Source: Gammaproteobacteria bacterium (GTDB taxonomy: Bacteria > Pseudomonadota > Gammaproteobacteria > JBIOEC01). Taken from it: a DNA stretch of 32,000 bases. The stretch's first letter is position 1. The number at the start of each line of letters is the position of its first letter. Shown one piece after another: positions 27,632 through 27,754 of this stretch. The notes under the pieces are model-generated. The model did not search any database, had not been told where the DNA came from, and saw only the letters and a program-made list of their open reading frames with translations. The translations under genes were made by a program, and so were the position numbers. The stretch spans positions 1,770,001 to 1,802,000 of the forward strand of contig OZ257143.1 in assembly GCA_965279305.1 (NCBI GenBank), read 5' to 3'.

Positions 27632-27754
27632 GGAGAGACAGGGAGTGACTCGCGCCATCCCTGGCGCTCGCCCTAACGGGCGCGCTTTGCGCGTCCAAAA
27701 CGGCAATCCTGCCGTTTTGTCGAACCCTCCATCGGGAAGTTCGAATCTTCCACA
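27632..27754. ncRNA. GC-rich multi-hairpin element of unknown function (candidate small RNA; minus-strand reading exposes GGA motifs in loops)
   Basis: Hairpins at 27652-27667 (GCGCCA/TGGCGC), 27678-27696 (8 bp), 27696-27719 (10 bp) and 27735-27751 (GGAAG/CTTCC), plus a weak 3-bp stem at 27725-27736. The element is strongly GC-rich in an AT-rich intergenic region and has no ORF. Strand and transcript ends are undetermined. Confidence 0.4.

Follow-up and report, generated by a model that had tools for sequence, protein, structure and literature searches.

The GC-rich, hairpin-forming segment at positions 27632-27754 of a 32,000-nt stretch of gammaproteobacterial DNA (the whole stretch is hereafter called the window) lies between a tRNA-Ser(UGA) gene and a letA/uvrY/gacA-type response regulator gene, and a sequence-only reading had put it forward as a short Rsm/Csr-type decoy RNA, or another structured regulatory RNA, linked to the Gac/Let circuit. 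The present analysis leads elsewhere: positions 27632-27800 probably make up one gene-less repeat unit of ~169 bp at the 3' end of tRNA-Ser(UGA), that is a non-autonomous mobile element targeting tRNA genes. The core of this unit is a member of a large family of repeats under structural constraint, many different tRNA and transfer-messenger RNA (tmRNA) genes are followed by the complete arrangement, and the unit is missing in most relatives examined.

The unit in the window

The segment departs from its surroundings in composition, with a GC content of 0.59 over 27620-27739 (120 nt) vs. 0.34-0.45 in the flanks, as well as in folding, the minus strand reaching -61.7 kcal/mol (z = -4.1; none of 200 shuffles as good) and the plus strand -56.9 kcal/mol (z = -4.7); the GC-rich stretch described at the outset is thus real. 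It is enclosed by the start of the letA/uvrY gene (TTG, ~27515, minus strand) and by a perfect 19-bp AT-rich hairpin adjoining tRNA-Ser(UGA). Read along the minus strand (Table 1), the tRNA gene is followed by this AT-rich hairpin, a T-arm-like hairpin (27751-27735), a hairpin ending in GGAGGGTTCGA, the GC-rich block (27724-27645), TCCCTGTCTCTCC (27644-27632), an AT-rich spacer of ~115 nt and the TTG start of the regulator. The exact 13-mer GGAGAGACAGGGA, a repeat overlooked in the sequence-only reading, is found at both direct repeat positions, with 0.02 occurrences expected by chance. In tRNA-Ser it covers the 3' strands of T-stem and acceptor, so that the GC-rich block lies between two copies of the tRNA's 3' terminus.

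The hairpins listed by the sequence-only reading were recovered as GGAAG-ATTCGAA-CTTCC (27735-27751), CCC-GATGGA-GGG, a 10-bp stem with a GGAT loop (27696-27719) and GCGCCA-GGGA-TGGCGC (27652-27667), with the exception of the fourth, GGACGCGC-AAA-GCGCGCCC, which covariation in relatives resolves better into two small ones, GCGC-AAA-GCGC and CCC-GTTA-GGG. The stretch is ORF-free in a loose sense, two mechanical open reading frames (ORFs) of 40-44 amino acids overlapping it. A consensus scan of 27516-27800 returned no promoter-like site on either strand, and the AT-rich hairpin was not called a terminator by the same scan.

Table 1. Parts of the ~169-bp unit and adjoining genes in the window
Feature	Positions	Strand	Basis
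Intact tRNA-Ser(UGA), insertion host	27797..27887	-	ARAGORN; Rfam tRNA, 58.6 bits
Direct repeat, copy 1: 3' strands of T-stem and acceptor in the working tRNA, minus-strand sequence TCCCTGTCTCTCC	27801..27813	-	Exact 13-mer
S: perfect AT-rich hairpin (19 bp, loop of 5 nt) immediately following the CCA end, terminator-like	27755..27797	.	Sequence, inverted repeat
A': inverted copy of the tRNA 3' end, decayed; canonical T-arm in plus-strand reading, GGAAG-TTCGAAT-CTTCC (27735-27751)	27733..27754	-	Sequence
H4: hairpin TTCGAACTTCC-CGAT-GGAGGGTTCGA, 3' strand being T-stem 5' half plus TTCG	27720..27745	-	Minimum-free-energy fold
Four-hairpin core	27642..27724	-	Covariance-model match
H3 (loop GGAU)	27696-27719	-	Covariance model, covariation
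H2 (loop AAA)	27680-27693	-	Covariance model, covariation
H2b (loop GUUA)	27671-27680	-	Covariance model, covariation
H1: GCGCCA-GGGA-UGGCGC, bracketed by tandem G.A and a C-G pair	27649-27670	-	Covariance model, covariation
Direct repeat, copy 2: fragment of the tRNA-Ser 3' end, displaced or spare, immediately after the core, without CCA end	27632..27644	-	Exact 13-mer
letA/uvrY/gacA-type response regulator, neighbour only, outside the element	26777..27517	-	Translation, homologues, synteny without element

Regarding the parts between tRNA and core, a hairpin equivalent to S exists in every tRNA-linked unit listed, and a hairpin TCGAACC...GGTTCGA, as in H4, recurs in other tRNA-linked units. 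The score of A' in the window is 9, equal to the 99th percentile of its shuffles, which makes the inverted copy borderline at this locus. The element as a piece of a tRNA, tRNA-Sec or tmRNA was rejected, since ARAGORN and Rfam show no such gene and only the T-arm/acceptor fragments are tRNA-derived.

The four-hairpin core family

A covariance model of the core, named R2, was built without the window sequence (leave-one-out) and searched against the 32 kb with filters off. It gave a single match in the window, the minus-strand core of Table 1, over model positions 1-80 with 71.9 bits and E = 9e-17, E-values being rough owing to a short calibration. The hairpin order of the family, namely H3 with a GGA loop, H2, H2b and H1 with an NGGA loop, tandem G.A and a covarying closing pair, is found in the window.

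In species-representative genomes, a scan with a 20-mer of the last hairpin reached at least 120 loci in many Gammaproteobacteria, and two classes can be distinguished among the genome-scan matches listed. Class A, the window type, has four hairpins: H3 of 9-10 bp with a (C)AGGA(UU) loop, H2 of 4-5 bp, H2b as CCC-GNA-GGG, and H1 as GCGCCA-NGGA-UGGCGC bracketed by GA..GA with a closing pair switching between C-G and U-A. Class B, found in Marinobacter, Stenotrophomonas and others, corresponds to the TwoAYGGAY motif. Of note in Marinobacter, the TwoAYGGAY-type copies of loci L005, L023, L028, L030 and L035 each sit inside a perfect, locus-specific outer stem of 18-30 bp, no third copy of which occurs within 260 nt.

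Matches in other loci (116 + 88) yielded at least 149 distinct full-length copies of ~80 nt, on which the structural constraint can be gauged. By minimum-free-energy parsing, GGA stands in the first hairpin loop of 112 and in the last hairpin loop of 122 of these 149 copies, and the middle loops are c-GNA-g in 133 of 217 cases. The covariation score of the family is 0.381 vs. 0.141 for shuffles, none of 500 reaching the family value, and at most 0.078 when the partners are slid; all stems covary. Pairs of H3 alternate between CG, UA, GC and AU across the family, and in copies not selected through H1 the H1 stem switches to GCACCA/TGGTGC, GCCACA/TGTGGC or GCATCA/TGATGC, the NGGA loop and the flanking GA..GA being kept. 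As for the three GGA loops of the window on which the regulatory idea was built, those of H3 and H1 are conserved across ~150 copies with covarying stems, and the placing of GGA in loops is not a product of chance; the third, in the loop of H4, is not conserved in the family.

Copies can be numerous at one locus, with seven in L012 (an 8-kb locus), four in L043 and three in L068, and in these three loci the core forms mosaics with other repeat modules. Many copies elsewhere, as in a REP/MITE-type repeat, had been named by the sequence-only reading as grounds for refuting its idea, and at the family level they exist. No Rfam family was found for class A in 12 loci with the four-hairpin form, and no published description of the element was retrieved by a sequence-string or keyword literature search; the core family is without Rfam entry and its nearest relative is TwoAYGGAY. 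In viral contigs (IMG/VR), two of seven matches proved genuine, one lying at the edge of a predicted provirus; the other five (L125, L127, L128, L130, L131), where the 20-mer GAGCGCCACGGATGGCGCGA lies in a phage ORF, were discarded as coding coincidence.

The layout behind tRNA and tmRNA genes

Eight loci among the genome-scan matches listed have a tRNA or tmRNA gene upstream of the core and on its strand, the hosts being tRNA-Arg, Gln, Glu, Ser and tmRNA and the parts following one another as in the window. An exact repeat of 10-23 nt of the gene 3' end comes after the core in seven of the eight, and is decayed in the last (L113). In metagenome contigs, which were scanned with a pattern requiring GGTTCGAC at the left edge and thereby pre-selecting T-loop-type edges, ~47 copies stand behind tRNA or tmRNA genes, 58-89 nt past the nearest gene end and on the same strand, with exact repeats of 9-30 nt in 32 of them. 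The metagenome hosts comprise Gln-CTG (10), Ser-CGA (7), Arg-CCG (7), Ser-GGA (6), Glu-TTC (5), tmRNA (4), Ser-GCT (3), Glu-CTC (1) and Arg-CCT (1), and three further copies tallied as Ala-GGC or Arg-TCT are actually behind Glu-TTC or Lys-CTT of the same clusters. Pooling metagenome, genome loci and window, at least 43 distinct tRNA-linked units were counted, every copy being oriented like the gene just upstream, and in 16 of the 43 the inverted 3' end copy is clear, scoring beyond the 99th percentile of shuffles.

The junctions are constant, with the T-stem 5' half plus TTCG (TTCA for tmRNA) on the left, and AAT or ATT followed by the T-stem 3' half, the acceptor strand and CCA on the right, which places the core in the T-loop after position 57 or 58. 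Flanks differ by locus, outer stems are locus-specific and the direct repeats reproduce the end of the host tRNA. Units in tandem were seen in L145, L169, L188, L192 and L222, and L142 and L196 contain a further set of 3' end, hairpin and inverted copy that lacks a core. Besides, 38 of the 46 class-A copies among the genome-scan matches listed lie away from tRNA genes; roughly one in four of the non-tRNA copies has an outer stem, which in tRNA-linked copies consists of the T-stem or of A'/A pairing.

An interrupted tRNA gene with a T-loop intron was considered and set aside, as in-silico removal of the core restores a tRNA in one of 56 copies (L032) and not in the window. In that locus (4394-4655, minus strand), two tandem tRNA-Met(CAT) genes are identical over positions 1-58; the core occupies the T-loop of the upstream gene, whose 3' end is degenerate and lacks CCA, and the intact twin lies 36 nt downstream.

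Absence from syntenic relatives

The LetA homologues, which place the organism near Candidatus Berkiella and its relatives, carry Response_reg and GerE domains. In L002 (92% LetA identity), the element is present directly after TGGCGGAGAGACAGGGATT, with a direct repeat of 19 nt that keeps GCCA, and the contig breaks 20 nt further, inside the element. In L001 (also 92% LetA identity), tRNA-Ser and letA are kept with other DNA between them. The tRNA-Ser(UGA)-letA-uvrC synteny is found without the core in L001, L226, L227, L228 and L230, and no AT-rich hairpin S was seen behind tRNA-Ser in these same five loci; L229 has neither tRNA-Ser nor core. With core and S missing in syntenic relatives, the whole ~169-bp unit appears as an insertion in the lineage of the window and L002, of which S is probably a part.

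The element therefore adjoins gacA/letA because the tRNA-Ser-letA gene order is conserved, and not through any regulatory link. The proposed tie to the Gac/Let circuit falls on the same grounds, given five relatives that keep the synteny without the element and the same element behind dozens of unrelated tRNA and tmRNA genes. As a separate observation, positions 2760-2900 of L001 hold other GC-rich hairpins, GCGCCAAGGCCATGCCTTGGCG and GCCACGGCATGGCCTTGGC, in the tRNA-Ser-letA spacer. Foreign hairpin DNA has landed in this spacer repeatedly.

Relation to known RNA families

At the gathering threshold, Rfam recognised four tRNAs only in the whole window. When the element was searched up to E <= 10, the best score in the CsrB/Rsm clan was RsmW with 14.4 bits (E = 5) and sX7 gave 14.9 bits, all of which is noise; model searches hence lend nothing to the suggestion of an Rsm/Csr-type RNA. 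A relative copy gave weak partial matches to sX7, Ysr224 and RsmY (12.3 bits), to be taken as leads and not as membership. For Yersinia Ysr224 the similarity, far below threshold, is between its 3' part and the reverse strand of a TwoAYGGAY-type element.

The TwoAYGGAY motif (RF01731, clan CL00106) goes back, reportedly, to work by Weinberg et al. in 2010 and by Gardner and Eldai in 2015 and, to our knowledge, its function has been unassigned since 2010. The window element resembles it by the A-N/Y-GGA-Y loop hairpin with tandem G.A and a second GGA hairpin nearby, by the locus-specific outer stem and by the occurrence in Gammaproteobacteria; H1 of the window (C-GA-GCGCCA-GGGA-UGGCGC-GA-G) has the TwoAYGGAY-type loop and tandem G.A, and the H1 20-mer is common to true copies such as L005, a genuine TwoAYGGAY member with 43.6 bits vs. 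43 bits as the gathering score. This value is out of reach for the window element, clan scores being at most 14.4 bits, and 12 four-hairpin loci remain without match. Its H1 loop reads AGGGAU vs. AUGGAU in most copies, and its two GGA hairpins are parted by two extra ones, mostly c-GNA-g mini-hairpins across the family, vs. an adjacent pair in TwoAYGGAY. A further difference is the location of a subset of window-type copies in the T-loop of tRNA 3' end copies, which is not known to have been described for TwoAYGGAY.

Proposed mobile unit and alternative explanations

In the proposed mobile unit, the order along the tRNA strand is the working tRNA 3' end, S, A', H4, the ~80-nt core and a second direct copy of the 3' end that starts at T-loop position 58 (+/- 1). 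Under this layout it is a spare T-arm/acceptor fragment that holds the core in its T-loop, and the real tRNA is left whole. The element would aim at the tRNA T-loop and may be moved by a protein encoded elsewhere, whose recognition surface could consist of the conserved GGA loops and the tandem G.A pairs bracketing H1; conserved loops on variable stems indeed suggest a protein reading these features on a folded single strand. The tRNA-sense strand in folded form, perhaps single-stranded DNA, would probably be what is recognised, since c-GNA-g triloops prevail in the two middle hairpins; such triloops were reportedly found to be exceptionally stable in DNA in the mini-hairpin work of Hirao and Yoshizawa. 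These triloops, together with the stability of the sense strand under DNA parameters, weakly incline the analysis to a single-stranded DNA form. A bolder proposal, possible but held with more doubt than confidence, is that the ~170-bp unit represents a new class of gene-less mobile elements, which would insert at T-loop position 57/58 of tRNA and tmRNA genes as a folded single strand, rebuild or leave a working 3' end and a terminator, carry an inverted target 3' end and offer its GGA/tandem-GA hairpins as a handle for a recombinase or a CsrA-family protein, TwoAYGGAY being the same at non-tRNA sites.

Several points weigh against this interpretation. The window holds a single copy in 32 kb, so a multi-copy state in the source genome is unproven. 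The sequence invariance of H1 is inflated, in part as an artefact of the search patterns, and the frequency of T-loop linkage in metagenomes is not unbiased since the pattern pre-selected GGTTCGAC. The strand test is weak and undecisive, with 181 G.U pairs in the sense vs. 240 in the antisense minimum-free-energy folds and the sense strand more stable in 97 of 149 copies under RNA parameters and in 134 of 149 under DNA parameters. No transposase or integrase was found linked to the element, no systematic search having been made. Integrase, target-duplication and snap-back models were considered and none explains all the parts, the integrase model leaving the inverted copy A' and target switching unexplained and the target-duplication model leaving A' unexplained. 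Finally, the conserved A(N)GGA loops fit the CsrA consensus equally well.

This last point leads to an alternative regarded as rather unlikely, namely that the core could be made as RNA by read-through from the strongly transcribed tRNA-Ser gene and that its two A(N)GGA hairpins could bind a CsrA/RsmA dimer, as a decoy or a cis element; the outer stem and tRNA-like 3' end would then give stable processed ends, a scenario compatible with mobile DNA. It would account for the conservation of both GGA loops while the stems covary, for the shared orientation of all tRNA-linked copies counted with the upstream gene, and for H1, in which CANGGAUG within a hairpin matches the established consensus of CsrA sites. 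A dedicated Rsm-type sponge is unlikely here because every unit has a long terminator-like hairpin between tRNA and core, the space does not accommodate a promoter and the scan showed none, the conserved GGA sites number two vs. 5-22 in known sponge RNAs, and the element is mobile and not conserved at orthologous loci. To this add the Rsm/Csr models, all at noise, and the middle hairpins, whose c-GNA-g triloop is a stability motif of DNA rather than RNA. Binding of CsrA by a transcript of the element is nonetheless possible. The RNA idea of the sequence-only reading has a published parallel in TwoAYGGAY, which shares its Rfam clan with CsrB/Rsm and which, for its tandem G.A pairs and its match to the CsrA binding motif, was proposed without test as a CsrA-sequestering small RNA (PMC4333381). 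The Xanthomonas small RNA sX7, which accumulates as a ~85-nt processed RNA (PMC3300014), has a similar 3' part, its consensus positions 63-92 resembling H2b+H1 (L079 1723-1752; 20 bits, far below threshold).

Less probable again would be an attP-only remnant of a tRNA-integrating island or prophage, that is a cis-mobilisable mini-element where a tyrosine integrase crossed over in the block from T-loop to CCA and the interior was lost, leaving two arms, with the hairpin core by chance in one of them. Direct repeats that span T-loop to CCA with identity lost abruptly beyond, the gene regenerated intact, tandem arrays, tRNA and tmRNA genes as hosts and one copy pair at a predicted provirus edge by tmRNA-like remnants (L129) are all consistent with it. 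Against these stand the uniform ~170 bp in at least 43 independent loci, the above-mentioned 38 of 46 class-A copies away from tRNA genes, a core that interrupts the T-arm-like hairpin instead of lying beside a core site, and A', which has no role in an integrase model; stem covariation, moreover, points to selection for folding and not to arm-type protein sites. No full-length island or element with an integrase and the core at its far end was met among the 225 pattern-scan loci (L005-L225) or in the window, in the absence of a systematic search. Last, a chance run of GC-rich hairpins or an extended terminator/insulator of tRNA-Ser has in its favour a position downstream of a tRNA, where hairpins are common, and is hardly credible in view of E = 9e-17, ~150 covarying copies, the absence in relatives with the same tRNA and a z-score of -4.1.

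Comparison with other systems

With the sponge RNAs CsrB and CsrC as well as RsmX, RsmY and RsmZ, the element has in common GGA in hairpin loops and a nearby gacA/letA-type gene; unlike them, it has no GacA/LetA box or promoter found, and is multi-copy at the family level, polymorphic and at a non-conserved locus. With tRNA- and tmRNA-integrating islands and their integrase-less, CIME-type derivatives, it shares direct repeats of the 3' end from the T-loop with the gene intact, tandem arrays and a presence varying among relatives. In contrast to these, it is ~170 bp without a gene, a covarying hairpin cluster interrupts the T-arm copy and an inverted 3' end copy is present. Like repetitive extragenic palindromic elements and bacterial interspersed mosaic elements (REP/BIME) and miniature inverted-repeat transposable elements (MITE), it is short, GC-rich, hairpin-forming, intergenic, present in several copies in other genomes (L012, L043, L068) and part of mosaics with other modules there, and differs from them in lacking a GTAG head or fixed terminal inverted repeats and short target duplication, in conserving loops rather than stems and in having a subset specific for tRNA T-loops.

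Regarding RNAs from tRNA 3' external transcribed spacers, of the 3'ETS-leuZ type, the resemblance is a location downstream of a tRNA on the same strand, as a potential trailer; the long hairpin before the element, the lack of conservation with the tRNA and the mobility tell them apart. Structure-conserved covarying stems with one meaningful strand may finally recall the folded sites attC of integrons and attP of the CTX phage, an analogy only, as no sequence similarity or associated recombinase has been shown for the element.

Implications

The element not being a Gac/Let-controlled Rsm RNA, it should not be annotated as such, and a false regulatory lead is thereby removed. The analysis also ties the orphan, TwoAYGGAY-like class of GGA hairpins to the behaviour of mobile DNA at tRNA genes, which offers a route to the binding partner. 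Should the unit prove self-contained, essential tRNA genes would be the target of an unusually small element that does not destroy them, with a bearing on genome evolution, annotation of tRNA loci, assembly breaks and possibly on a compact targeting module. If, on the other hand, CsrA is bound by its RNA, some genomes would have, in hundreds of scattered copies, an unrecognised layer of Csr titration.

Other features of the window

The LetA/UvrY homologue of the window ends in an Asn/Gln/Ser-rich acidic C-terminal tail of ~30 amino acids that is missing in most homologues of ~215 amino acids (87% query coverage). The gene order letA-uvrC-pgsA-tRNA-Gly-Cys-Leu (23903-24197 and 24884-27517, both minus strand) matches what we take to be the enterobacterial arrangement of E. 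coli, uvrY-uvrC-pgsA-glyW-cysT-leuZ. On the plus strand, an ORF of 921 amino acids (21017-23782) combines an N-terminal F-box-like motif (LAPELLLRIVRRYF) with seven tandem repeats of ~59 amino acids (21813-23180, DNA period 177-180 nt), and by these sequence features resembles the eukaryote-like effectors of intracellular bacteria. Besides, a 29-nt palindromic repeat (GTAATGACAGCGTCATTA...), 90% identical between 20032-20060 and 23815-23843, brackets both a GNAT-like ORF (20432-20926) and this repeat protein, and could mark a small inserted cassette.

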